NCBI GenBank assembly: GCA_037479045.1
Contig: JBBFLL010000002.1
Coordinates: forward strand, 2,347 to 66,346
Direction: 5' to 3'
Length of the DNA: 64,000 nucleotides
Source: Brevinematales bacterium
Lineage (GTDB): Bacteria > Spirochaetota > Brevinematia > Brevinematales > JAOACQ01
Both the position numbers and the translations under genes were made by a program. The notes under the pieces are model-generated. The model was not told the origin of the DNA. It saw only the letters and a list, made by a program, of their open reading frames with translations, and searched no databases. This document shows, one piece after another, positions 1 through 14,897 of the stretch; position 1 is the first letter of the stretch, and each line of letters starts with the position of its first letter.

Positions 1-2
1 AA

Positions 3-344
3 AAACCATTGGGAGTTTATTATATTTCAAATCAAACTATACATGAATACTTTCGAGTTGTAACAAATCCAAGAATCTTTAAAGACTGTTTGAACTTAGA
101 AAAAGCAATTGAAAATATAAGTTTTTTCTTTGATTGGTTTAAGATTGCAGGTAATATTCCATATGGAAAAGATTTTTTGATTATTAAGATGAGGGAATAC
201 AAAGTTTCAAGTGAAAAAATATTTGATTTTGCACATTATATGATAATGATAGAAAATCACATACAAAATATAATTACTGTAAACGAAAAAGATTTCGAAA
301 ACTTTTATGGAATTAATGTAATTAATCCATTAAAAAAGGTATAA
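3..344 (+). CDS. PIN-domain (VapC-like) protein, 5' end runs off the window
   Basis: The frame is open from the window edge. HEYFRVVTNPRIF and the C-terminal ITVNEKDFENFYGINVINPL resemble the central helix and the T-x-N-x-x-DF...v-x-nP end of VapC/PIN toxins. The stop lies 4 nt before the cas5 ATG. Confidence 0.6.
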   Translation, partial: KPLGVYYISNQTIHEYFRVVTNPRIFKDCLNLEKAIENISFFFDWFKIAGNIPYGKDFLIIKMREYKVSSEKIFDFAHYMIMIENHIQNIITVNEKDFENFYGINVINPLKKV

Positions 345-348
345 GTCT

Positions 349-1107
349 ATGGATAAATTAATTATTTTTGATATATCTGGCCCTTTTGCAAATTTCAGAA
401 AATTCTATACAAATTCATCTTCTTCAACCTACATTGTTCCACCAAGAACGGTTATTTCTGGTTTGATTGCTGGAATTATTGGCAAACCAAGAGATAGTTA
501 CTATGAAGAATTTTCTATAGATAATGCAAATATAGGTGTAAAACCTTTAACTAAAGCAAAAAAGTTAACACAGACCATAAATTATTATAACATTGAGATT
601 AAAAATAAAACACTAAGATATCAAGTTCCTATGGAAATTTTAGTTCCAGAGAAAAGAAATGAATTGGTTTCTTACAGGGTTTATTTTTACCATAAAGAAG
701 AGGAAATATTTAATGATTTCCTTAGCCGATTGAAAGATAGAAGATTTATATATAATCCTTATCTTGGAATAACAGAGTTTCTTGCTAATATAAATTTTGT
801 ATCATTTTTAGATGATAAAAGTGTGAAAAAAGTAGAAATAAACGAAGAAGATTTTATAGAAGTAGAAGGATGTTTTAACATAAAATATATTATAAAATTG
901 GATACTTCTTCTAATCCACCTGTAGTAGTTAATAGAATGCCAATTCAGTTCAAGGAAAATAGAGAGCTTGATTTGTTTGGAGAGTATATAGTTGAGAAAA
1001 ATTGTAGCACCATAAAAGTAAAGCTAAAAAAAGAAGCACCTCTATACAAATTAACATACAGTTTTAATGGTGAAACAAAAGAAGAAAATATTATATTTAT
1101 GGAGTAA
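349..1107 (+). CDS. cas5: CRISPR-associated protein Cas5 (type I-B-like)
   Basis: 252 aa. The N-terminus MDKLIIFDISGPFANFRKFYTNSSSSTYIVPPRTVISGLIAGIIG is the canonical Cas5 RAMP start. The gene sits directly upstream of cas3. Confidence 0.85.
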   Translation: MDKLIIFDISGPFANFRKFYTNSSSSTYIVPPRTVISGLIAGIIGKPRDSYYEEFSIDNANIGVKPLTKAKKLTQTINYYNIEIKNKTLRYQVPMEILVPEKRNELVSYRVYFYHKEEEIFNDFLSRLKDRRFIYNPYLGITEFLANINFVSFLDDKSVKKVEINEEDFIEVEGCFNIKYIIKLDTSSNPPVVVNRMPIQFKENRELDLFGEYIVEKNCSTIKVKLKKEAPLYKLTYSFNGETKEENIIFME

Positions 1108-1117
1108 GAAATAAATT

Positions 1118-3607
1118 ATGTGTAAATTTTTCTCACATCCTGATAAAGAATTAAAAGAACATCTTGCTTCTGTTGCTGAATTAATGAAAATTAAATTTGA
1201 CAAAATTGTTTGTTCAGAAGTAATTGAAAATTTGAAAGAACACCTCATTAATATAATAAAAATTACAGGAGTATCGCATGATTTTGCCAAGTATACAAGT
1301 TACTTTCAAAAACATTTAAGAAATAATAACAGAGATGAATTATCAAATCATGGTCTTTTGAGTGCTTTATTTGCTTTTTTCCTTGTAGATAAATACCTTT
1401 GTTGTAAAAGCCTGAAAGAAAACGAATACTTAAAGTTTTTACCTTTATTAGTATTTCAGTGCATTAAACATCATCATGGGAATTTAAACAATTTGGATAG
1501 AGAAATTAATGATTTAAAGATTAAATTAGATATTTTGCAAAAACAAATGGAAGATATTTTAAAAAATAAAGAAAAAATTACATCTGAACTTAAGAGACTA
1601 TTGGGAGATATTTTTTGTCAATCTGAAGATTTTGATTTTTTAGAAGAATTTAGTAAGAAATTAAATACAGAAACTCAATATGAAGATTATCCCGTAGAAA
1701 TAATTTTTGAAATTGGAAAACTGAATTATTGTTTTAATAATAAAATTAATGAGGAATTAAAAGATTATTATTTTATTATAAATCAATATATTTATTCACT
1801 TCTGATTTCATCAGACAAGATAGATGCTGCGAGTTTAGAACAAATAAATGTTAATGGGAAAGAATTTTCTTTAGACATTGTGGAACAGTATAAAAATAAT
1901 AATTTTAATTCAAAGAATAAAATAAAATTTATTATAAATAACGAAATATTCAAATGTAATTTGATTGAAATGAGAGAAAAAATTTATTTCAGTGTTTTAG
2001 AAAAGCTTGAAAAAATTGACATAAAAAGAAATAAAATCTTTACAATCACAGCACCCACAGGAACAGGAAAAACAATTACTTCATTTGCTTCAGCTTTAAA
2101 GATAAGAGAAAAATCAAATAAACCAGATATGAAAATAATATATTCACTTCCTTTCACAAGTATAATAGAGCAAAACTACGAAGTTATTGAAAAAATTTTA
2201 AGTTTAATAGAAGATTTTAAAGAAAACAAAAGTTTGTATTTATTAAAACATCACTATTTTTCAAAACCAGAGTTTAAAGTTGAAAATGAAAAACTACCAG
2301 TAGATGAGGCTTTAATGTATATCGAAAACTGGGATAGTCAGGTGGTTGTTACCACTTTTGTACAACTTTTTTATACTCTTATAGGATGGAGAAATAGGGA
2401 ACTGAAAAAATTCCACAACCTTGCAAATTCAATAATAATTCTTGATGAGGTTCAAAATATACCAGTGAAATACTGGAAACTAATTAATCATATTCTTAAA
2501 CTAATTTCTCAGTATTTTAACACTTATATAGTGCTTCTTACTGCGACAAAACCATTAATATTTGAAAATGATGAGTCAGTAGAACTTCTTGAAAACCATG
2601 AAGAATATTTTAAGAATCTTAATCGTACTAGACTTATTTTTGAAGAAAAACCTATGAAGTTAGATGATTTTGTATGTTATGTAAAAAAAAGAATACCTTG
2701 TAAAAATAGCGTGCTGGTAGTTTTAAATACAATTAATTCAAGTAAAGAGTTTATAAAAAAGATTAAAGAAGATAAACTTTTTTCTAAATTTACAAAATTT
2801 TATCTCTCAACAAATATAACTCCATTTGAAAGATTAAATAGAATAAAAAAGATAAAAGATTGTCTAAAAAATAATGAAAAAGTGATAGTAGTATCAACTC
2901 AGCTTATTGAAGCTGGCGTTGATATAGATGTTGAGATAATTTTTAGAGATATAGCCCCTTTTGATTCAATCATACAATGTGCTGGAAGAAGTAATAGAAA
3001 TGGCAAACTCAGTAGAGTAGGAGAAGTTTATATTGTTAAATTGATAGATGAAATAGGAAGTCTATTTGCAAAAAAAATTTATGATAGTATATCAATAGAT
3101 GAGGGTACATTAAAGATATTTGAAGAGAACCCAAATAAGGATGAGAAAGAATATTTAAGTTTAATTAATAAATATTTTGAGATTATGAAAGAAAAAAAGT
3201 CAAGTGAGGAATCTAAAAAACTAATAAACTCTTTAAGAGAGTTTTATTTTTTTGATAAAGATTTTGAACCTAAGAAACAACTACCTTTGAGTAATTTTGA
3301 ACTTATCAGAGAATTACCTTATGAAGTTTCGTTATTTATAGAATTAGATGATGACTCAACTAAAATTTTAAATAAATTTAATGAAATAAAAAAAGAAAAA
3401 GATAGGCTTAAAAAATATAATGCATTTCAAGAAATAAAGAGTGATTTTTATAAGTATATAATAACTGTAAGAAAGGATAAAATTGTAGGTGAAGAAATTA
3501 TTCAGGATGATTTATATTGCATTTCTGAAGAAATTCTTAATGATTATTATGACAATGAAGAAAATGTTGGTATTGGTTTTGATCCAGATAAGTTTGTAAA
3601 AAAATGA
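1118..3607 (+). CDS. cas3: Cas3 HD nuclease / SF2 helicase fusion
   Basis: 829 aa. N-terminal HD motifs (SHDFAKY, IKHHHGNL), Walker A TAPTGTGKT, DExx-type ILDEVQ, and late helicase motif QCAGRSNR. ATGA overlap with cas4. Confidence 0.93.
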   Translation: MCKFFSHPDKELKEHLASVAELMKIKFDKIVCSEVIENLKEHLINIIKITGVSHDFAKYTSYFQKHLRNNNRDELSNHGLLSALFAFFLVDKYLCCKSLKENEYLKFLPLLVFQCIKHHHGNLNNLDREINDLKIKLDILQKQMEDILKNKEKITSELKRLLGDIFCQSEDFDFLEEFSKKLNTETQYEDYPVEIIFEIGKLNYCFNNKINEELKDYYFIINQYIYSLLISSDKIDAASLEQINVNGKEFSLDIVEQYKNNNFNSKNKIKFIINNEIFKCNLIEMREKIYFSVLEKLEKIDIKRNKIFTITAPTGTGKTITSFASALKIREKSNKPDMKIIYSLPFTSIIEQNYEVIEKILSLIEDFKENKSLYLLKHHYFSKPEFKVENEKLPVDEALMYIENWDSQVVVTTFVQLFYTLIGWRNRELKKFHNLANSIIILDEVQNIPVKYWKLINHILKLISQYFNTYIVLLTATKPLIFENDESVELLENHEEYFKNLNRTRLIFEEKPMKLDDFVCYVKKRIPCKNSVLVVLNTINSSKEFIKKIKEDKLFSKFTKFYLSTNITPFERLNRIKKIKDCLKNNEKVIVVSTQLIEAGVDIDVEIIFRDIAPFDSIIQCAGRSNRNGKLSRVGEVYIVKLIDEIGSLFAKKIYDSISIDEGTLKIFEENPNKDEKEYLSLINKYFEIMKEKKSSEESKKLINSLREFYFFDKDFEPKKQLPLSNFELIRELPYEVSLFIELDDDSTKILNKFNEIKKEKDRLKKYNAFQEIKSDFYKYIITVRKDKIVGEEIIQDDLYCISEEILNDYYDNEENVGIGFDPDKFVKK

Positions 3608-4107
3608 AAAGTTGCAATCCTCTCACTCCCACACTCTTCTGGTATTACTACATCTGTCCAAGAGAAGTCTGGTTTATGGCAAGGTATATTGTGCCTGAGC
3701 AGGATGATACAAATGTTGCCTTGGGCAGGCTTATTAAAGAAGAAAGCTATTCGAGAGAGAAAAAAGAGATAAGAGTGGAAAATATGGTTATTGATGTTAT
3801 AAAGAGAGAAAAGGAAGAACTTGTTGTATGTGAGGTTAAGAAAAGTTCAAAATATCTTCAAAGTGCAAAAATGCAACTTTTATATTATCTTTATCAATTA
3901 AAGCAAAAGGGATTGATTGTTAAAGGGGAACTGTTATTTCCAAAAGAGAAAGAGAAAATCTCTGTTGAGCTTACTGGGAAATCTGAAATAGAAATAAAAA
4001 ATGCAATAAATAAGATTCAAGAATTAGTGAATAAAGAGAATCCGCCTATTTTGAAAAAGAATACTTTTTGCAAAAGATGTGCTTACAGAGAATTATGTTA
4101 TGCATAA
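3604..4107 (+). CDS. cas4: Cas4 RecB-like exonuclease
   Basis: 167 aa. N-terminal Cys (YYICPREVW), nuclease core VCEVKKS, and C-terminal Cys cluster CKRCAYRELC, as in Fe-S Cas4. Located between cas3 and cas1. Confidence 0.9.
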   Translation: MKSCNPLTPTLFWYYYICPREVWFMARYIVPEQDDTNVALGRLIKEESYSREKKEIRVENMVIDVIKREKEELVVCEVKKSSKYLQSAKMQLLYYLYQLKQKGLIVKGELLFPKEKEKISVELTGKSEIEIKNAINKIQELVNKENPPILKKNTFCKRCAYRELCYA

Positions 4108-4118
4108 TGAGGTTTAAA

Positions 4119-5111
4119 ATGAAAAAACCAATTTATATTTTTTCTGATGGAGAATTAAAAAGGAAGGATAAAACTCTCTATTTTGAGAAAGAAAGTGGAA
4201 AAAATTATATTCCAATAGAAAATACTTCAGAAATAATGATATTTGGTGAGGTTACTTTAAACAAAAGGCTATTGGAATTTTTGACTCAAAACGAAGTTAT
4301 AATTCATTTTTTCAATCATTATGGTTATTACATTGGTACATATTATCCACGGGAACATCTTAATTCTGGTTTTGTTATACTTAAACAGGCTGAACATTAT
4401 CTTAATAGTGAAAAGAGGACAAATCTTGCAAAGAAAATAGTTTATGGAGCTGTTGAAAATATAAAGAAAGTTCTGGGATATTACAATTCAAGGGGAAAAG
4501 ACCTTTCAAGATGCATTCAAGAAATAGATGAGTTACAAGCCAAACTTGATGAGCAATCTGATATCGAACAATTGATGGCAATAGAAGGTAATATAAGAGA
4601 GCAATATTATAAGGCATTTGATATCATAATTGAAGATGAAGATTTTTGCTTTGAGAGTAGAACAAAAAGACCGCCACAGAATAGATTAAATACTCTTATA
4701 AGTTTTGGAAATTCAATGCTTTATACTACATGCTTATCTGAAATATATAAAACTCATCTTGATCCGAGAATAGGTTTTTTACATACCACTAATTTCAGAA
4801 GGTTTTCATTAAATCTTGATGTGGCAGAGATTTTTAAGCCAATAATTGTGGATAGAGTTATTTTTTCATTGTTAAATAAAGGTATGATTAAGGAAGATAA
4901 TTTTGAAAATAAAATGAATGGAATTGTAATGAACAAAAAGGGAATGGAAATTTTTGTAAAAGAATATGATGAAAGATTAAAAACAACTATTCATCATAAG
5001 GGATTGGGAAGAAATGTTTCTTACAAAAAATTGATAAGGCTTGAATTATACAAGATAGAAAAACATATTATGGGAGATGAAGAGTACAAACCTTTTGTTT
5101 CGGGGTGGTAA
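4119..5111 (+). CDS. cas1: Cas1 integrase
   Basis: The ORF track opens at 4068. However, the ATG at 4119 (MKKPIYIFSDGELKRKDKTLYFE) lies just past the cas4 stop and matches a Cas1 N-terminus. Later LNLDVAEIFKPIIVDRVIF resembles the conserved Cas1 C-terminal helix. Confidence 0.92.
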   Translation: MKKPIYIFSDGELKRKDKTLYFEKESGKNYIPIENTSEIMIFGEVTLNKRLLEFLTQNEVIIHFFNHYGYYIGTYYPREHLNSGFVILKQAEHYLNSEKRTNLAKKIVYGAVENIKKVLGYYNSRGKDLSRCIQEIDELQAKLDEQSDIEQLMAIEGNIREQYYKAFDIIIEDEDFCFESRTKRPPQNRLNTLISFGNSMLYTTCLSEIYKTHLDPRIGFLHTTNFRRFSLNLDVAEIFKPIIVDRVIFSLLNKGMIKEDNFENKMNGIVMNKKGMEIFVKEYDERLKTTIHHKGLGRNVSYKKLIRLELYKIEKHIMGDEEYKPFVSGW

Positions 5112-5375
5112 ATGTATTTTATTTTAATGTATGATGTAAATGAAAAAAGGGTAGCAAAGGCTTTGAAAACTTGCAGAAGATATTTAACATGGGTTCAGAA
5201 CTCAGTTTTTGAAGGAGAGCTTTCAAAAGCACAATATGAGAAACTCAAAGTTGATCTTAAGAAAGTTTTAAATCTTGAAGAAGATTCTGTTATAATTTAT
5301 GAACTTCGAGATGAAAGATATTCAAACAGGGAAGTTATAGGAATATCTAAAAATGAAGTAAATAGTTTTTTTTAA
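5112..5375 (+). CDS. cas2: Cas2
   Basis: 87 aa. MYFILMYDV...WVQNSVFEGEL is the Cas2 ferredoxin-fold signature. The gene starts on the base after the cas1 stop. Confidence 0.92.
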   Translation: MYFILMYDVNEKRVAKALKTCRRYLTWVQNSVFEGELSKAQYEKLKVDLKKVLNLEEDSVIIYELRDERYSNREVIGISKNEVNSFF

Positions 5376-5513
5376 GTCGATGTATTATAATGTAAAAATG
5401 TTAGTGGTTCGACAAATTTTTATTTTTATGTAAGAAAAAGAAAAAAATTTTTTTGAAAAATATTGATTCGATAGGAAATATTTGCTAAAATAATTAATAA
5501 CTGATGAAAATGG
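5376..5513 (+). promoter_or_regulatory. CRISPR leader with candidate sigma70-type promoter (TTGATT 5463-5468, 17-nt spacer, TAAAAT 5486-5491)
   Basis: AT-rich non-coding stretch between the cas2 stop and the first repeat. The -35/-10 hexamers have 17-nt spacing and end ~22 nt upstream of repeat 1. Confidence 0.5.
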
Positions 5514-5944
5514 ATTTTTAGTCTACCTATGAGGAATTGAAACATTAAAATCGTTACTTATAATACAGGTGATAAAAAAGATTTTTAGTCTACCTATGAG
5601 GAATTGAAACTTTAAATAAGTATAATAACTTCCCGCCCATCCATCTCATTTTTAGTCTACCTATGAGGAATTGAAACTATATATAGAGAGAGTTTTTTTA
5701 AAGGAGGTATATATATTTTTAGTCTACCTATGAGGAATTGAAACAATTTTTGAAAAGCAATAACAAAAAGCCCGATGTTTTATTTTTAGTCTACCTATGA
5801 GGAATTGAAACTAAACTTCGAGGTTAAAAACGAGCTAACGAGCGAATTATTTTTAGTCTACCTATGAGGAATTGAAACTTATTTTCTAATGTCGCATTTT
5901 GTATGTTTATACTTATTTTTAGTCTACCTATGAGGAATTGAAAC

Positions 5945-6344
5945 TCTGAAAACAAATTAGACCTAACGGGAAAATATGTTATTTTTAGTCTACCTATGAG
6001 GAATTGAAACGAATTAAACATTGCTATAATTCTTTGTGTGCAAATCAATTTTTAGTCTACCTATGAGGAATTGAAACATTGTATAAGTTGTGTTGAGATA
6101 AAAGTTTTTAAAGAATTTTTAGTCTACCTATGAGGAATTGAAACTCTGAAAACAAATTAGACCTAACGGGAAAATATGTTATTTTTAGTCTACCTATGAG
6201 GAATTGAAACGAATTAAACATTGCTATAATTCTTTGTGTGCAAATCAATTTTTAGTCTACCTATGAGGAATTGAAACATTGTATAAGTTGTGTTGAGATA
6301 AAAGTTTTTAAAGAATTTTTAGTCTACCTATGAGGAATTGAAAC
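5945..6344 (+). repeat. Perfect tandem duplication of a 3-spacer/3-repeat block (2 x 200 bp) inside array 1
   Basis: 5945-6144 is base-for-base identical to 6145-6344. The spacers are TCTGAAAACAAATTAG..., GAATTAAACATTGC... and ATTGTATAAGTTGTG.... Confidence 0.95.
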
Positions 6345-7874
6345 AAAAATACAATGGTCAAAATTGCGAAGTTATTACGAATTTTTAGTCTACCTATGAG
6401 GAATTGAAACTCATCAATCTTTAAATTACCAAAAAATTTTATAACAGATTTTTAGTCTACCTATGAGGAATTGAAACAAAGCACTCGATTTGATAATCTC
6501 TCTATCTCTGTCAAATTTTTAGTCTACCTATGAGGAATTGAAACAGAGAGTGTCAGAAAAGACACTCTCTTTTTTTTTGTATTTTTAGTCTACCTATGAG
6601 GAATTGAAACACGGCAAGGAAGAAAAATTCTTCCTTGACGGGGAGAATTTTTAGTCTACCTATGAGGAATTGAAACCAACATACTGTTTATTATTTTTCT
6701 CGCTCCACAACTATTTTTAGTCTACCTATGAGGAATTGAAACGGCTGATTCGTGATAAAATTTACTTAATCAACGGAAAATTTTTAGTCTACCTATGAGG
6801 AATTGAAACGATTTAATGAAAAAGAGCTTGCAAGTTTTGTTGAAGAATTTTTAGTCTACCTATGAGGAATTGAAACACTATTGAGAGTGATAAAATACTT
6901 CTCAAGCCAAAAAATTTTTAGTCTACCTATGAGGAATTGAAACATAAGATGGGATAGTATAAGCCCAGAGGGGTATTTAATTTTTAGTCTACCTATGAGG
7001 AATTGAAACTTGCTGACTGATCTGAATAAATACAGAGTGCTGGCAATTTTTAGTCTACCTATGAGGAATTGAAACTTCTTTACCAAAAAAAGACGTAATT
7101 GATATAAAAAAAATTTTTAGTCTACCTATGAGGAATTGAAACAACTGATAGAGATACAAAACGATTTACTTCGATTTGAATTTTTAGTCTACCTATGAGG
7201 AATTGAAACATAAGTGCAAGCGTAGATGGGGATATTATCGTCCCTGATTTTTAGTCTACCTATGAGGAATTGAAACAAAGATAAACTAAAAAATTTTTTT
7301 TGTAAAAGACTTATTTTTAGTCTACCTATGAGGAATTGAAACTTTTATTATATTTTTGTGAAAAATAAAGAATTAGTCATTTTTAGTCTACCTATGAGGA
7401 ATTGAAACATAAGTTCAAAGTATAAAGGATTATTTCCTATTTCTATTTTTAGTCTACCTATGAGGAATTGAAACTAAGATTGAAATATTTTTGTTTTTCA
7501 TCGGCAGGCATATTTTTAGTCTACCTATGAGGAATTGAAACTTTTATGATTGTAAAAGAAATAGTTAGCAATTATTTAATTTTTAGTCTACCTATGAGGA
7601 ATTGAAACATATACCACTCAAGCCATAGACTTAACTGGGCATAAATTTTTAGTCTACCTATGAGGAATTGAAACTTGGCGAGGATGTTAATAGAGAAGGA
7701 TTGAAAGAAAATTTTTAGTCTACCTATGAGGAATTGAAACTCGTTTATATCTATCTTAACTACTCCAAATCCAAACAATTTTTAGTCTACCTATGAGGAA
7801 TTGAAACCCAAAAAACGTTTGTCATTCAGGGGCAAATTACCATCATTTTTAGTCTACCTATGAGGAATTGAAAC

Positions 7875-8274
7875 TACGGATGTATATTTTTGCAATAATC
7901 AAAACACGGATTTTTAGTCTACCTATGAGGAATTGAAACCACTCAAGCCCTTTCTTGTTTAAAGCATCAATATAAAGATTTTTAGTCTACCTATGAGGAA
8001 TTGAAACTAATCTAAAACATTTCTTATTGTAAGAAAACTATTTGATTTTTAGTCTACCTATGAGGAATTGAAACTTCATTACAAAATGTGCTGCCTCATT
8101 TAAAGCTGTTAATTTTTAGTCTACCTATGAGGAATTGAAACTACGGATGTATATTTTTGCAATAATCAAAACACGGATTTTTAGTCTACCTATGAGGAAT
8201 TGAAACCACTCAAGCCCTTTCTTGTTTAAAGCATCAATATAAAGATTTTTAGTCTACCTATGAGGAATTGAAAC
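7875..8274 (+). repeat. 133-bp two-spacer block repeated 267 bp (4 units) downstream inside array 1
   Basis: 7875-8007 equals 8142-8274 (spacers TACGGATGTATATTTTTGC... and CACTCAAGCCCTTTCTTG...). In addition, the spacer at 8008-8044 recurs at 8939-8975. Confidence 0.95.
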
Positions 8275-8405
8275 TAACTAAATGTCTCCCACCTTGCAAA
8301 GCTCTTAAAAATTTTTAGTCTACCTATGAGGAATTGAAACTAACTATCTATTGGTGTCCTCAAAAGGTCACCCCCATTTTTAGTCTACCTATGAGGAATT
8401 GAAAC

Positions 8406-8671
8406 AAGAATTTCTTTTCGAGTTTATAGAGCTAACAAGGCATTTTTAGTCTACCTATGAGGAATTGAAACCTTGTAAAAGTTTCTTTCTTTATATCACC
8501 AATGCCTAATTTTTAGTCTACCTATGAGGAATTGAAACAAGAATTTCTTTTCGAGTTTATAGAGCTAACAAGGCATTTTTAGTCTACCTATGAGGAATTG
8601 AAACCTTGTAAAAGTTTCTTTCTTTATATCACCAATGCCTAATTTTTAGTCTACCTATGAGGAATTGAAAC
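8406..8671 (+). repeat. Perfect tandem duplication of a 2-spacer block (2 x 133 bp) inside array 1
   Basis: 8406-8538 equals 8539-8671 (spacers AAGAATTTCTTTTCGAG... and CTTGTAAAAGTTTCTTTC...). Confidence 0.95.
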
Positions 8672-9435
8672 TTTTTCACAAATTCAACAGTCTTTCCAAT
8701 CAATTCATATTTTTAGTCTACCTATGAGGAATTGAAACATAGAATTTTATCAAGACAAAGCTCTTATGGATAAAATTTTTAGTCTACCTATGAGGAATTG
8801 AAACTTTAATACACCTAAGTAATCTTTAAAACTTCTTTTTCATTTTTAGTCTACCTATGAGGAATTGAAACATAGCTTTTTCACAAGTTTCAGCAAATTG
8901 ACAATATCATTTTTAGTCTACCTATGAGGAATTGAAACTAATCTAAAACATTTCTTATTGTAAGAAAACTATTTGATTTTTAGTCTACCTATGAGGAATT
9001 GAAACTTAACTGCTGTAAAAAATATTTCTGCGTTTGATTATGAATTTTTAGTCTACCTATGAGGAATTGAAACCCGAAAAAATCTTGTCAAGTTTTTTTT
9101 CATTTTTTTTATTTTTAGTCTACCTATGAGGAATTGAAACAGGTCTACCTCCTGACTTGAGGAAGTCACCTCTTGCCTATTTTTAGTCTACCTATGAGGA
9201 ATTGAAACTGATATATATGTAAAATAAAATAGAGAGGTGATTTATTTTTAGCCTACCTATGAGGAATTGAAACGATGTAGGTCTCAAATGGCAACAAATT
9301 TATGAAATTATTTATAGCCTACCTATGAGGAATTGAAACCAGTTTTTTGAAAATTATTTCCTTGCTAAAGCAAAAATTTATAGCCTACCTATGAGGAATT
9401 GAAACACACTTGCGTCATCTCCAAAATTCTGGACA

Positions 9436-10696
9436 CTAACAATAAAAACTTAATGGTTCTGAGAACTGAAACTTGCTAATTTCTTTTAACAACGCGTCTT
9501 CTACAAACTAACAATAAAAACTTAATGGTTCTGAGAACTGAAACGCGTTAGCCCAGTTGTAATAAATATTGTGATTATGCCTAACAATAAAAACTTAATG
9601 GTTCTGAGAACTGAAACTTTAGCAACACTCTCGATCCCTTGCCAATACTGGTACTAACAATAAAAACTTAATGGTTCTGAGAACTGAAACTACTTCAGCC
9701 CTCATCAAGCAACCACTATGATTTAAACTAACAATAAAAACTTAATGGTTCTGAGAACTGAAACATGCGGATTTCTTTCTTTAGTTTTATTAGCACGTTC
9801 TAACAATAAAAACTTAATGGTTCTGAGAACTGAAACTACTTTCCTCCTTTTTTTTATCATATATATATTATACCTAACAATAAAAACTTAATGGTTCTGA
9901 GAACTGAAACCCTGTGCTGTAGTTTTTACCACACTGCCGAATGCCCCTAACAATAAAAACTTAATGGTTCTGAGAACTGAAACTCCTGTAACTCTTTGCT
10001 ACCAATCTTTACACTCGTCTAACAATAAAAACTTAATGGTTCTGAGAACTGAAACCTCACTATCGAAGAGGCCGAGCTGCTTGAAGAACTCTAACAATAA
10101 AAACTTAATGGTTCTGAGAACTGAAACCCTTTTCTGAAAAATTTTCTGTAACTGCTTCCTGCGCTAACAATAAAAACTTAATGGTTCTGAGAACTGAAAC
10201 TATCGGCCGTCGACGTGCACGATTGATGTATATATTCTAACAATAAAAACTTAATGGTTCTGAGAACTGAAACAGTATTTATCAATCTATTAAAAGACAT
10301 ATAATAAGACTAACAATAAAAACTTAATGGTTCTGAGAACTGAAACCAATCGTGCAAGTATCACTGTTCAAAAGTTTTGCCTAACAATAAAAACTTAATG
10401 GTTCTGAGAACTGAAACACATAAATGATATTATTTACTTTCCTAAAATGCCAGCTAACAATAAAAACTTAATGGTTCTGAGAACTGAAACATACAATTAG
10501 CGCTATGTATTTACTCGCATTTGATTTCTAACAATAAAAACTTAATGGTTCTGAGAACTGAAACAAATTCCAAAATTCATACTTACCTCCTTTTTTTCTC
10601 TAACAATAAAAACTTAATGGTTCTGAGAACTGAAACAAAACAAAGCCGAAAACGTATTTTGATTTACTTCGCTAACAATAAAAACTTAATGGTTCT
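9436..10696 (+). CRISPR. CRISPR array 2: 17 full copies plus one 3'-truncated copy of the 37-bp repeat CTAACAATAAAAACTTAATGGTTCTGAGAACTGAAAC, with 17 spacers of 34-37 bp
   Basis: Repeats start at 9436, 9508, 9581, 9654, 9728, 9800, 9874, 9947, 10019, 10091, 10164, 10237, 10310, 10381, 10454, 10528, 10600 and 10672. The last copy keeps only its first 25 nt (10672-10696). The repeat contains the small hairpin GGTTC-TGA-GAACT and ends in ACTGAAAC. Confidence 0.97.
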
Positions 10697-10813
10697 TAAA
10701 TAAAGTTTTCATAAAAAAATATTATTAAAAATTTGATTTTTTTTATATCATATGTAATAATTTAATCAGTTGGATAGAGATTTTTGCGTGTTTTTTATTC
10801 TCTATCGAGCATT

Positions 10814-10860
10814 CTGCCCTTAGAGCAAAAATTAAGGGCAGGAAAACCGTTTTTATTTTT
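10814..10860 (+). terminator. Hairpin CTGCCCTTA-(10 nt)-TAAGGGCAG followed by a T-rich tract; candidate terminator of the CRISPR transcript
   Basis: Perfect 9-bp inverted repeat at 10814-10822 / 10833-10841. The T-run TTTTTATTTTTT starts 8 nt after the stem, which is farther than canonical. Confidence 0.4.
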
Positions 10861-11083
10861 TGAAAATCAAAACATTTCAATCACACTATAGAATGATAAT
10901 TCGTTCTCAGAGGTTTACTAACCTTGGTTCTATTACCCAGTTAATGAAATTTAATTTAATTAATTATAATAAAAAAATTAAAAAAATCAAGTTTATAAGT
11001 TTAAATTTATTGTTAGATAATATTATAAAATCAAAAACTAACAATTAAAAATTAATATTTTTTAATTAACATCATATACCCTT

Positions 11084-11470
11084 TCAAGAAAAAATTTCTT
11101 TCATGTTATCTGAAGATAATAACTGCTGGATATAAGAATAATTTAAATCGCTCGAAAAGAAAATATAAAATTCAGCAGCGTCTTGTTTAGGATAAGTATA
11201 AACTACATTTAAATCTTTTAAGTGATGATCAAGGATATATTTTTTATTAAAGTCAATAAATATCGGGCTGAAAGAACATAAGAATATAATAGTAAAGGGG
11301 TCATATATATCTTTTGATGAATTGGGATTAGAAAAAATTTTTATATCCATAATAAAAGCAAAAGGTTCAAGTGCAGAACTTATTTTTGAGATCATTTCTT
11401 TTGTTAAATTTTCTCTGTATGAGAGATTTTTTTGAATAATGGTGTCTAACGTATCGTTATTTTTCGACAT
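11084..11470 (-). CDS. Hypothetical protein (128 aa), no recognisable motif
   Basis: Strong SD (AAGGAGGAG) lies 7 nt upstream of the ATG on the minus strand. The ORF is the only coding-like frame between array 2 and mfd. Confidence 0.6.
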   Translation of the reverse strand: MSKNNDTLDTIIQKNLSYRENLTKEMISKISSALEPFAFIMDIKIFSNPNSSKDIYDPFTIIFLCSFSPIFIDFNKKYILDHHLKDLNVVYTYPKQDAAEFYIFFSSDLNYSYIQQLLSSDNMKEIFS

Positions 11471-11615: not shown

Positions 11616-14600
11616 ATGCAAAACTTTTTAGACCTTGTGTTTAATTCTTTTGATTCAAAAGAAGTTGTTTCAGATAAAGAAATTTCTGTCCCAATCGGTT
11701 TTTTCCCATTTTTGTTATCCTCTGTGAAAAGCAGTGATTTCAATATTTTTTATGTTGCAAAAAATGAAATTGAAGCAGAGGGAATTTATACATCTCTTAA
11801 AGCCATTGGTGAAGAAAGTTTGTTTTTTCCAGAGGTTGATGTCTTGCCTTTTTCAAATGTTTTTCCTTCTCCTGATAAGCTATTTGACAGGTTTAATACT
11901 CTATACAATATTTCTCATAAAGGTGGAAATATTGTTATAACAACAATGGAAGCCTTTTTGAGAAAAATTCCTCCAGTTGAATTTTTCAAAAAATCTATAA
12001 TTGAGTTAAAAAAGAGTGAGAAATTTGAAAGAGATTATTTGATAAAGAAACTTTCAGAATATGGATATATCAGAGAAAATAAGGTTATTGAGACGGGAAG
12101 TTTTTCTGTAAGGGGAGATATTGTTGATGTTTTTTGTCCAATATATAATAAGCCTTTGAGAATAGAGTTTTTTGGTGATGAGATCGAAAGTATAAAATTT
12201 TTTGAACTTGAGACTCAAAAATCTTCAACTATGGTAGATAATATTATTCTTACTCCAGCAGATGAATTTAATATTGATAAGGAATTTGTCAAGGAAGAGG
12301 ATAAAGTCTATCTTTCAAACACCCTTATTCATTCATATTTTTTGAAATTTTATAATTCTTATTCAAAAATTACAGATTATTCAGTAGCAAAAAATATAAT
12401 TTTTGTTGATGAATTTTATAATGAGCTTGAAGAAAATGTTAAAAAGAAATACGATAATAAAGAAACAAGTCTTATTTTTTCTTTTAAAGATTTTTTTATT
12501 GATTCTCAAATTATAAAAAATACACATATTAAAAAGCCAGATCAGCCTTTTTCAAGTATATATAAACTACCAGAATTCAAGTCGAATTTTTCTCAGGTTA
12601 TTAACTTACTTGAAAGTGAATATCTTAAAAATGGATATAAAGTCTTTATCCTTGTAGAATACAAGGAGCTTGCTGAAAGGCTTTCAAACATATTACACAA
12701 ATTTTCACCTGAAATTATAAGGCCTGATACAGAATTGAAAGAAGATAAAAATGTTTACATAGTTGTTATAAACTATGAAACTGGCTTTGAGATTAAAGAC
12801 AAGAAGATAATACTTATATCCGAAAGTGATATAAGTGGTAAAAAAAGACTTTTCAGGAAGAAAATCAGACAAATTGAGAGCTTTTTTGAAGATGTTGAAG
12901 ATATAAAAGAAGGTGAATACGTTGTCCATATAAATTATGGAATTGGTATTTTCAGAGGTATTGAAAGAATAAATGTTCTCGGTAAGGAAAAGGATTATAT
13001 TCTACTTGAATATAAGGACAAAGAGAAACTTTATGTTCCTTTTGAACAGTCCAATTTGATCGGTAAATACATAGGTGATCCAAATAAAAAGGCAGAACTT
13101 GATTCTTTAGGGACAAAAAGCTGGGTTAAGAAAAGAGAAAGAGTAAAGAAGTCTATCGAAGAATTTGCAGAAAAACTTGTAGCAATCTATGCAAAAAGAA
13201 AGGCTTTGCAGGGGTATGCATTTGGTCCTGATACAGTCTGGCAGAAAGAATTTGAGGATAAATTTGAATACATAGAGACGCCCGATCAGATAAAAGTCAT
13301 AGAAGAAATCAAAAGAGATATGGAATCTTCAAGGCCTATGGAGAGACTGCTTTGTGGAGATGTAGGTTTTGGTAAAACAGAAGTAGCAATGAGAGTTGCC
13401 TTTAAAGCTGTAATGGATGGTAAACAGGTTGCTGTTGTAGCTCCCACAACAGTGCTTGTGGAACAGCATTACATAACTTTTACAGAGAGATTTAAAGGTT
13501 TTCCAGTAAGGATAGCTTATTTATCGAGATTTACTGAAAGCAGTAAAGAAAGAGAAATCTTAACTCAACTTAAAAATCATAAAATAGATATAATAATAGG
13601 AACACACAAGCTTTTTTCTGAAAAGATAGTTTTTCAGAATCTTGGATTGATAATAATCGATGAAGAACATAAGTTTGGAGTTCTTCATAAAGAGGCTTTG
13701 AAAGAAAGATATCCTCTTGTTGATTTTCTTTCTCTTTCGGCTACTCCTATACCAAGAACTTTAAATATGGCATTATCATCTCTCAGGGATATAAGTCTTC
13801 TTCAAACACCACCAGATATGAGAATTCCAGTAGAAACCTATGTGGGGGATTTTTCTCTTGATATTTTGAAGTATGCAATTGAAAATGAGATTAAAAGAGG
13901 TGGGCAGGTATTTTTTGTTCATAATACTATAAAAAGGTTGCCAGAATATGCATATTTGATAGAAAGCCTTGTTCCAGAAGCAAAAACAACAATAGGTCAT
14001 GGCAGAATGGAAGAAGAGGAGCTTGAGAAATCTTTTCTTGGGTTTGTTAAGGGGGATTTCAATGTTTTTGTTTCCACGGCTATAATTGATTCAGGACTTG
14101 ATATTCCAAATGCCAATACGATTATTGTAAGTGATTCTCATAAATTTGGCCTATCACAGCTTTATCAGTTGAAGGGTAGGGTTGGAAGAGGCAAGAATCA
14201 GGGGTATGCTTATTTTCTATATCCAAAAGATAAGATTTTAACTGAAAATGCTGAGAAAAGGCTTTATGTGATACAGGAATATACAGAACTTGGTGCAGGA
14301 TTTAATATTGCGTTAAGGGATCTTGAAATAAGAGGAGCTGGAAATATTCTTGGTAAGGAACAGCATGGAAATATTGTAGCAATAGGTTATGATATGTATA
14401 TGAAATTACTGAGAAAGGAGATTGAAAAACTCAAAGGTGAAGAGAAGCCAGAAATAATTACTATGATAGATTTGAAATACGATGCCTATATTCCAGATTT
14501 TTATATTTCGGATAATTCTTCAAAGATGGAAGTGTATAAAAAAATTCTTTCTGTTAATGATGAAAATGAGATAGAGGAGCTTAAGATAGAATTAATAGAC

Positions 14601-14897
14601 AGGTTTGGGGAAATTCCAGAAGAAGTTTTATCTTTGTTTGAAATTTCAAGGCTTAAGATTCTTGCCTCAAAGGCTGGAATTGAATCAATAATAGAGAAAG
14701 GGGATTTGATAGAGATTGAATTTTCAAAATATTCAAAGGCAGATATTTCAAAAATTATGAAGATTATTACAGAAAATAAAGAAATTATAATTAAACCAAA
14801 TGAAAAGAACAAACTTTTTATGAAAACTTTTGAGAGCAATATTTATATAAAAGTGAGAAGGCTTACATCTTTTATAAAAGATATTACAGATATTTAA
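11616..14897 (+). CDS. mfd: Transcription-repair coupling factor Mfd
   Basis: 1093 aa. CarD/RNAP-interacting region (EGEYVVHINYGIGIF), helicase motifs GDVGFGKTEVAMR and IIDEEHKFGV, and a TRG-like C-terminal region. Confidence 0.95.
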   Translation: MQNFLDLVFNSFDSKEVVSDKEISVPIGFFPFLLSSVKSSDFNIFYVAKNEIEAEGIYTSLKAIGEESLFFPEVDVLPFSNVFPSPDKLFDRFNTLYNISHKGGNIVITTMEAFLRKIPPVEFFKKSIIELKKSEKFERDYLIKKLSEYGYIRENKVIETGSFSVRGDIVDVFCPIYNKPLRIEFFGDEIESIKFFELETQKSSTMVDNIILTPADEFNIDKEFVKEEDKVYLSNTLIHSYFLKFYNSYSKITDYSVAKNIIFVDEFYNELEENVKKKYDNKETSLIFSFKDFFIDSQIIKNTHIKKPDQPFSSIYKLPEFKSNFSQVINLLESEYLKNGYKVFILVEYKELAERLSNILHKFSPEIIRPDTELKEDKNVYIVVINYETGFEIKDKKIILISESDISGKKRLFRKKIRQIESFFEDVEDIKEGEYVVHINYGIGIFRGIERINVLGKEKDYILLEYKDKEKLYVPFEQSNLIGKYIGDPNKKAELDSLGTKSWVKKRERVKKSIEEFAEKLVAIYAKRKALQGYAFGPDTVWQKEFEDKFEYIETPDQIKVIEEIKRDMESSRPMERLLCGDVGFGKTEVAMRVAFKAVMDGKQVAVVAPTTVLVEQHYITFTERFKGFPVRIAYLSRFTESSKEREILTQLKNHKIDIIIGTHKLFSEKIVFQNLGLIIIDEEHKFGVLHKEALKERYPLVDFLSLSATPIPRTLNMALSSLRDISLLQTPPDMRIPVETYVGDFSLDILKYAIENEIKRGGQVFFVHNTIKRLPEYAYLIESLVPEAKTTIGHGRMEEEELEKSFLGFVKGDFNVFVSTAIIDSGLDIPNANTIIVSDSHKFGLSQLYQLKGRVGRGKNQGYAYFLYPKDKILTENAEKRLYVIQEYTELGAGFNIALRDLEIRGAGNILGKEQHGNIVAIGYDMYMKLLRKEIEKLKGEEKPEIITMIDLKYDAYIPDFYISDNSSKMEVYKKILSVNDENEIEELKIELIDRFGEIPEEVLSLFEISRLKILASKAGIESIIEKGDLIEIEFSKYSKADISKIMKIITENKEIIIKPNEKNKLFMKTFESNIYIKVRRLTSFIKDITDI

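Follow-up and report, generated by a model that had tools for sequence, protein, structure and literature searches.

A type II-B CRISPR array probably orphaned by a type I-B cassette swap between alr and mfd in a Brevinematia species

In a stretch of 64,000 nucleotides from a Brevinematales bacterium (assembly GCA_037479045.1, contig JBBFLL010000002.1, positions 2,347 to 66,346; hereafter the window) two CRISPR arrays with different repeat families lie 30 bp apart. Array 1 (5514–9405) adjoins a type I-B cas operon, and array 2 (9436–10636) is followed by a gene for a 128-aa protein and by mfd. Our comparison of this site among strains indicates that array 2 is, in all likelihood, a type II-B array that was orphaned when a type I-B cassette replaced its cas genes, its trans-activating CRISPR RNA (tracrRNA) and its leader, so that the double array would be the relic of a cassette swap. 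A first-pass annotation of the same DNA had instead described a co-oriented composite array, head to tail in a single transcription unit, in which the guides of array 2 would come only from read-through out of the array 1 leader and the junction could yield a hybrid CRISPR RNA (crRNA).

To carry out this comparison we looked up the Mfd protein of the window in public assemblies, which returned conspecific contigs from Brevinematia metagenome-assembled genomes (loci fetched for comparison carry L numbers below). Comparison of the locus in related genomes, which the first-pass annotation had itself pointed to, revealed that the same site between alr and mfd holds either a II-B or an I-B cassette, depending on the strain. 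In the II-B strain GCA_049968535.1 (L001/L018), alr on the minus strand is followed by genes for Csx12 (1409 aa, PF21069), Cas1, Cas2 and Cas4 and by an array of the identical 37-bp repeat; this array closes with the truncated repeat known from the window, and the right flank, the 128-aa open reading frame (ORF) and mfd follow as they do there. L013, L020, L023 and L025 share this layout. In the I-B strain GCA_964632035.1 (L005 and L002), alr on the minus strand is followed by the I-B operon in complete form and by array 1, which is joined to array 2 through the same 30 bp as in the window. Between the two strain types the right flank shows 99.5% identity across 8.4 kb and the left flank 99.9% across 4.7 kb, and both breakpoints could be placed: the left one lies about 70 bp beyond the alr start, after ...acaagttttttgg, and the right one coincides exactly with base 1 of the II-B array's first repeat. 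In L001 and L013 the array is preceded by a leader of about 125 bp plus the tracrRNA, both of which are missing at the window junction. The earlier remark that array 2 has no leader-repeat junction on its left was thus correct, but it passed over the absence from the window of the II-B effector and adaptation module and of the tracrRNA.

The conserved right border of the variable locus is formed by the 128-aa ORF (11084–11470, minus strand) and mfd (11616–14897, plus strand), with no second cas operon downstream of array 2. A candidate Cas9 or Cas13 at this position, a 1093-aa ORF, proved to be Mfd. Among the large ORFs scanned across the window there were no type II cas genes, the others being housekeeping genes, and the L001 anti-repeat had no match in the window at up to three mismatches; neither of the two components of a functional II-B system, cas9 and tracrRNA, was therefore found within these 64 kb.

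Array 2 consists of 17 perfect copies of the 37-bp repeat CTAACAATAAAAACTTAATGGTTCTGAGAACTGAAAC, separated by spacers of 34–37 bp. Of the 18 copies counted earlier these 17 are full repeats, and the eighteenth is truncated to 25 nt (10672–10696, minus strand), lacking the 12 nt GTTTCAGTTCTC of the crRNA-sense start; this terminal repeat, the old end of the array, is identical in every strain that reaches it. The identical 37-bp repeat follows csx12-cas1-cas2-cas4 at the same locus of the conspecific L001, L013, L023 and L025, and the L001 protein carries the NCBI annotation type II-B Cas9/Csx12. Type II-B is defined by 37-nt repeats with Csx12 and Cas4 (PMC3737331). Judged by its 37-nt repeat, its spacers of about 35 nt, the csx12-cas1-cas2-cas4 genes beside the same repeat in conspecifics and the cognate tracrRNA described below, array 2 is a type II-B array, with GTTTCAGTTCTCAGAACCATTAAGTTTTTATTGTTAG as the predicted crRNA-sense repeat on the minus strand and its left end (9436) as the acquisition end. 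Its repeat starts with GUUUCAGU in the crRNA sense and ends with AACTGAAAC on the cas-sense strand, as in the distant Csx12 loci L016 and L017, whose 37-nt repeats also end in ...AACTGAAAC on the cas-sense strand and recur with a period of about 72. A 20-mer of the array 2 repeat had no exact match in the genome collection, where relatives of the Csx12 protein are only 31–32% identical.

The orientation of array 2 follows from the tracrRNA of the II-B strains. In L001 the anti-repeat UGGUUCGAUGAACUGAAAUC lies between cas4 and the array on the minus strand (7702 to 7640); behind it comes a GC-rich hairpin ending in seven U, which is the sole terminator-like site within 2 kb, and the whole has the shape of a tracrRNA. 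The anti-repeat's duplex with the minus-strand repeat (GUUUCAGUUCUCAGAACCA...) comprises 10 bp, a 3x3 internal loop and 6 bp, with a computed energy of −21.6 kcal/mol. In the related Brevinematales loci L021 and L022, whose Csx12 proteins are 63% and 46% identical, respectively, this architecture is kept with compensatory changes on both partners, such as a U>C change in the L021 repeat that is paired with an A>G change in the tracrRNA; cognate repeat-tracrRNA pairs reach −20.7 to −27.5 kcal/mol, as against −12 to −18 kcal/mol for non-cognate ones. Anti-repeat candidates were also sought by an energy scan of the whole window, in which the top matches lay inside enolase and another coding gene and had no terminator; these were treated as chance. 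In II-B systems anti-repeats are found around the array, and the F. novicida (Francisella novicida) array is transcribed opposite to the cas operon (PMC3737331). From the cognate tracrRNA geometry, we infer that array 2 has its guides on the minus strand and converges on array 1.

The orientation proposed earlier had relied on the ...GAAAC end of the plus-strand repeat, which in II-B systems complements the GUUUCAGU... with which a crRNA repeat begins (Chylinski 2013, PMC3737331); as the complement of the GUUUC crRNA start, it is not a safe sign of a plus orientation. A head-to-tail transcription unit does not fit a II-B array with minus-strand crRNA sense and an AT-rich flank on its opposite side, and read-through from the array 1 leader would give antisense II-B RNA rather than guides. 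As for the hybrid crRNA, it would amount to the trailer transcript that any terminal I-B repeat makes, and a functional role for it is not supported.

The polarity of spacer acquisition was read from the strain comparison. L001 and L023 share five spacers at the truncated-repeat end and L002 and L014 share right-end units, whereas the left ends are unique to each strain; the truncated repeat is therefore the old end, and new spacers enter at the cas-proximal left end. Relative to the predicted crRNA sense, the II-B acquisition end is the 3′ end. Spacers are likewise gained at the transcription-downstream end in the type II-C system of Neisseria meningitidis (PMC12638026), but unlike type II-C, array 2 has no convincing repeat-internal promoter, the best match, TTCTCA-15-TATTGT, not being called by the scan. 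The II-B leader carries the opening 11–12 nt of the repeat as an inverted copy, at a distance of exactly 19 nt upstream of repeat 1 (L001 7794–7836; L021 about 6375–6417; L022 about 11794–11838), and this copy covaries with the repeat in three species (TTTATTGTTAG/CTAACAATAAA, TTTATTGTAGG/CCTACAATAAA and TTTGATTGAAAC/GTTTCAATCAAA). It may be an integration element or a 3′-end element, and it is deleted in the window. In the more divergent II-B strain L023 (5800–10000) the array spans about 4.2 kb, and its newer half contains many variant repeats and irregular spacers of 29–44 nt.

On the other side of array 2 lies a flank (10697–11083, minus strand) that, with 20% GC, is as AT-rich as the I-B leader. 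It contains a promoter-like match on the minus strand (TTGATT-16-TATAAT, 10990 to 10963, 10/12) and is likely to be the source of minus-strand pre-crRNA transcription. L001 and L023 have the flank in 100% identical form, even though the identity of L023 to the window over 5.8 kb is only 95.7%. It occurs as two alleles that differ at four clustered sites (10863, 10884, 10888 and 10892) and is otherwise invariant; these sites are found directly on the 5′ side of a fragment of the II-B repeat, inverted and degenerate, at 10900–10923. This fragment was considered as a scaRNA-like element or a second tracrRNA and was rejected, its pairing with the tracrRNA anti-repeat being at background (best −13 kcal/mol; 3% of random windows reach −14 kcal/mol or below). 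About 310 bp to the right of array 2, at 11006–11062, the window also holds a decayed direct copy of the II-B leader end with a degenerate repeat (TTTATTGTTAG-N21-CTAACAATTAAAAATTAAT...), which lies beside the stop codon of the gene for the 128-aa protein. On the plus strand, a hairpin at 10806–10862 (CTGCCCTTA...TAAGGGCAG) is followed within a few bases by a T-rich run; its loop is too long for it to have been called by the terminator scan, and the predicted structure could stop plus-strand read-through past array 2.

Array 1 comprises 59 copies of the 30-bp repeat ATTTTTAGTCTACCTATGAGGAATTGAAAC with spacers of 35–38 bp. The 30-nt repeat, the ATTGAAAC tag at the repeat end, the adjoining I-B cas operon and the AT-rich leader identify it as a type I-B array on the plus strand, with its leader-distal end on the right. 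The progressively mutated repeats reported at this end are present (9244–9405): the copy at 9244 has one change (T>C) and those at 9310 and 9376 have two each (ATTTATAGCC), marking the old end of the array. The ATTTATAGCC variant is scattered across the trailer half of array 1 in L002, and the two right-most spacers of array 1 are common to the window and L002, whereas the more leftward spacers differ.

The junction, ACACTTGCGTCATCTCCAAAATTCTGGACA (9406–9435, 43% GC), forms the right end of the I-B cassette. The claim that arrays of two families are joined directly holds, for the 30 bp contain no gene, terminator or AT-rich stretch; they are also shorter than every spacer of either array. The sole promoter-like match at the junction (9399–9427, 9/12) reuses the TTGAAA present in every I-B repeat, and the number of such matches in the region is at shuffle expectation (31 versus 32.3). 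The same junction occurs in GCA_964632035.1 (L002, a 61.8-kb contig with different array 1 and array 2 content) and in Logan SRR33387333 (L003). The 30-mer showed no similarity to any part of the fetched I-B or II-B loci, and no exact match was found in JGI metagenomes or in viral contigs.

Taken as a cassette swap, these observations would be ordered as follows. The ancestral state, retained in L001, L013, L023 and L025, would have been csx12/cas9-cas1-cas2-cas4 on the plus strand, a minus-strand tracrRNA, a leader of about 125 bp and the 37-bp array, with spacers gained cas-proximally, on the left, and with a minus-strand crRNA sense that is opposite to that of the cas operon. In the window lineage an I-B cassette, running from cas6 to cas2 with its leader and its own array, would have replaced the segment from about 70 bp beyond the alr start up to the first II-B repeat, which was itself spared. 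With this segment cas9, the II-B genes for adaptation, the tracrRNA and the leader of the II-B array would have been lost. The I-B array would thereby have come to lie with its old end 30 bp from the acquisition end of the II-B array, the two being convergent rather than tandem in crRNA sense. Array 2 may still be transcribed from the conserved right flank, but it would lack working guides because there is no tracrRNA and no Cas9, and it could not grow because the leader and the cognate integrase are gone. Array 2 in the window is thus most likely an orphan that is unable to make Cas9 guides or gain spacers. The perfect repeats and the 99.5–99.9% identity of the flanks point to a recent swap.

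The junction-bearing strains differ in array 2 itself, the window and L002 having no array 2 spacer in common. L002 carries the flank allele of L001, yet has the spacers of L014 together with a 479-bp insert found there, and L014 has the allele of the window. Such mixtures of flank alleles and spacers imply that the cassette and its junction can move between array 2 backgrounds, and the presence of the same junction on different array 2 contents is best explained by homologous recombination, by which the cassette would spread through crossovers in the 37-bp repeats and the flanks. The insert itself (L002 1800–2278; also in L014, absent from the window) is seated like a giant spacer between II-B repeats. 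Its 106-aa ORF contains a domain of the PBECR2 kind, a BECR-fold RNase toxin (30.1 bits versus a gathering score of 27.1). A strong promoter-like TTGACT...GATAAT is also present, with a GC-rich stretch of structured appearance behind it, and the insert may represent a toxin module embedded in a CRISPR array. No Rfam family matched array 2, the tracrRNA region or this insert.

Several points weigh against the cassette-swap reading. Minimum-energy pairing on its own does not discriminate, since the two sites inside coding genes of the window equal the real anti-repeat in the strength of their pairing with the repeat, and the transcribed strand and promoter of array 2 are predicted from consensus matches and tracrRNA geometry. 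The 30-bp junction has no source among the compared loci. Only 64 kb of the genome are in view, leaving room for a second II-B locus or a tracrRNA elsewhere, and the intactness of all 17 repeats together with the lack of any array 2 spacer shared with L002 might mean continued turnover after the fusion. An alternative is a still-working II-B array that depends in trans on a csx12 operon and a tracrRNA at another place in the genome; the perfect repeats throughout, the wholly different array 2 spacer sets of the two junction-bearing strains and the intact right flank speak for it. We regard this as unlikely. Wherever an assembly contains this Csx12, the gene is placed at the alr-mfd site, and the exact protein is on record only from II-B-type contigs and not from I-B assemblies; moreover, with the leader and its conserved inverted repeat deleted, polarised acquisition at 9436 would have to proceed without its usual target, and the recombination seen in the right-flank alleles accounts for the spacer differences without new acquisition.

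The composite array of the first-pass annotation appears very improbable. The absence of a terminator-like site between the arrays makes plus-strand read-through physically possible, and the plus-strand II-B repeat end TGAGAACTGAAAC does resemble the I-B end TGAGGAATTGAAAC. A composite would, however, require one guide strand and one shared leader, and the guide sense of array 2 is predicted on the minus strand from the cognate tracrRNA geometry; the AACTGAAAC end on the cas-sense strand is a general II-B feature, the AT-rich conserved flank lies on the other side of array 2, and the 30-bp junction is outside the spacer length ranges of both arrays. The same resemblance underlies a further scenario, to which we give slightly less credence still: I-B Cas6, encoded at L005 5436–6200, might cut a plus-strand read-through transcript of array 2, so that Cascade would reuse spacers acquired by the Cas9 system. 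On the plus strand the two repeats have TGAG(G)AA(Y)TGAAAC in common at the 3′ end, and with TGAGAACTGAAAC so close to TGAGGAATTGAAAC, I-B Cas6 could cut II-B repeats; a 3′ Cas9 protospacer-adjacent motif (PAM) would, on the opposite strand, occupy the 5′ position where type I systems read their PAM. Against it, the AACTGAAAC part is generic to II-B and the predicted hairpin register differs. If true, immune memory would be recycled across types once a cassette had been swapped, the lasting perfection of the repeats would have an explanation, and plus-strand small RNAs would bear the 8-nt ACUGAAAC tag. Searches with blastn of both arrays against phage genomes gave nothing relevant and spacer scans of viral contigs were empty, so there was no PAM comparison to make; none of the spacers had a self-target among the fetched loci. 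Least probable of all is an assembly chimera, in which reads of I-B and II-B strains from one population were wrongly joined. The two strain types do coexist in public metagenomes, and arrays break or collapse in assemblies, as array 2 has in L003. Against this, the same junction and the same two last I-B spacers recur in the independent assembly GCA_964632035.1, whose arrays otherwise differ, and the junction is also present in Logan SRR33387333; a chimera would in any case not make a unique 30-bp sequence found in neither parental locus. We therefore retain the cassette swap as the most likely explanation of the double array.

The incoming I-B locus is represented in the window by the 3′ part of its cas operon (349–5375, plus strand), identified by NCBIfam matches above the cut-off: cas5b (349–1107), cas3 (1118–3607), cas4 (3604–4107), cas1b (4068–5111) and cas2 (5112–5375), all on the plus strand. 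The complete operon, cas6-cas8b-cas7-(66 aa + PIN)-cas5-cas3-cas4-cas1-cas2, is found in L005, which is 100% identical to positions 1–5520 of the window. The bracketed pair, a 66-aa ORF and a 149-aa PIN-domain (VapC-like) ORF between cas7 and cas5 (L005 9366–9996), occupies the same place in eight assemblies, and the window ORF at 9–344 is the C-terminus of the PIN protein. The leader (5376–5513, plus strand; 138 bp, 20% GC) has promoter-like sites at 5453–5491. Rfam CRISPR-DR2 matches array 1 above the gathering score, the strand given for CRISPR-DR families being arbitrary. Among the 58 spacers of array 1, eight are duplicated in blocks (5915–6314, 7845–8277, 8376–8641 and 7978/8909; for example, 5915–6114 equals 6115–6314 at 100%), either by repeat-mediated duplication or as an assembly effect. 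Array 1 is like type I-B arrays of the Clostridium thermocellum kind in its 30-nt repeat, its ATTGAAAC 3′ tag, the AT-rich leader that follows cas2 and the older, variant repeats found distally, and its repeat presumably resembles the C. thermocellum 30-nt repeat ...CCTATGAGGAATTGAAAC; the locus differs in the PIN toxin-antitoxin-like pair within the operon and in the spacer block duplications.

The Brevinematia II-B locus shares with those of F. novicida U112 and Legionella pneumophila the 37-nt repeats, the spacers of about 35 nt, an anti-repeat/tracrRNA beside the array and an array that is read in antisense to its cas genes (PMC3737331). The window keeps only the array and its distal flank, with cas9, cas1, cas2, cas4, tracrRNA and leader gone. 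The GUUUCAGU start of the crRNA repeat is presumably shared as well, and the F. novicida tracrRNA runs on ...AAUCAUUUAAAAG after the anti-repeat, like ...AAAUCAUUAAAAG in L001.

Collectively, the event is of a known kind, an orphan array left by a cassette swap at a defence hotspot, and reveals no new mechanism. As in orphan arrays and defence hotspots generally, the window has an array without cognate cas genes and alternative immune cassettes at one conserved site in one species; unlike orphan arrays in general, this one abuts, at 30 bp, the active array of the incoming system and was cut exactly at the leader-repeat boundary. For the interpretation of similar loci, the ...GAAAC repeat end is an unsafe guide to orientation, since II-B arrays bear it on the non-guide strand, and where arrays of different families adjoin, synteny among strains should be consulted before anyone proposes a new architecture. 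In this hot-spring Brevinematia species, alr and mfd enclose a CRISPR-Cas locus that varies between strains. Read as a cassette swap, the site records how, very recently and within one species, type I-B took the place of a Cas9 system at one hotspot, with a pristine orphan left behind, and offers a natural setting in which to ask how fast orphan arrays decay and whether they recombine between strains.

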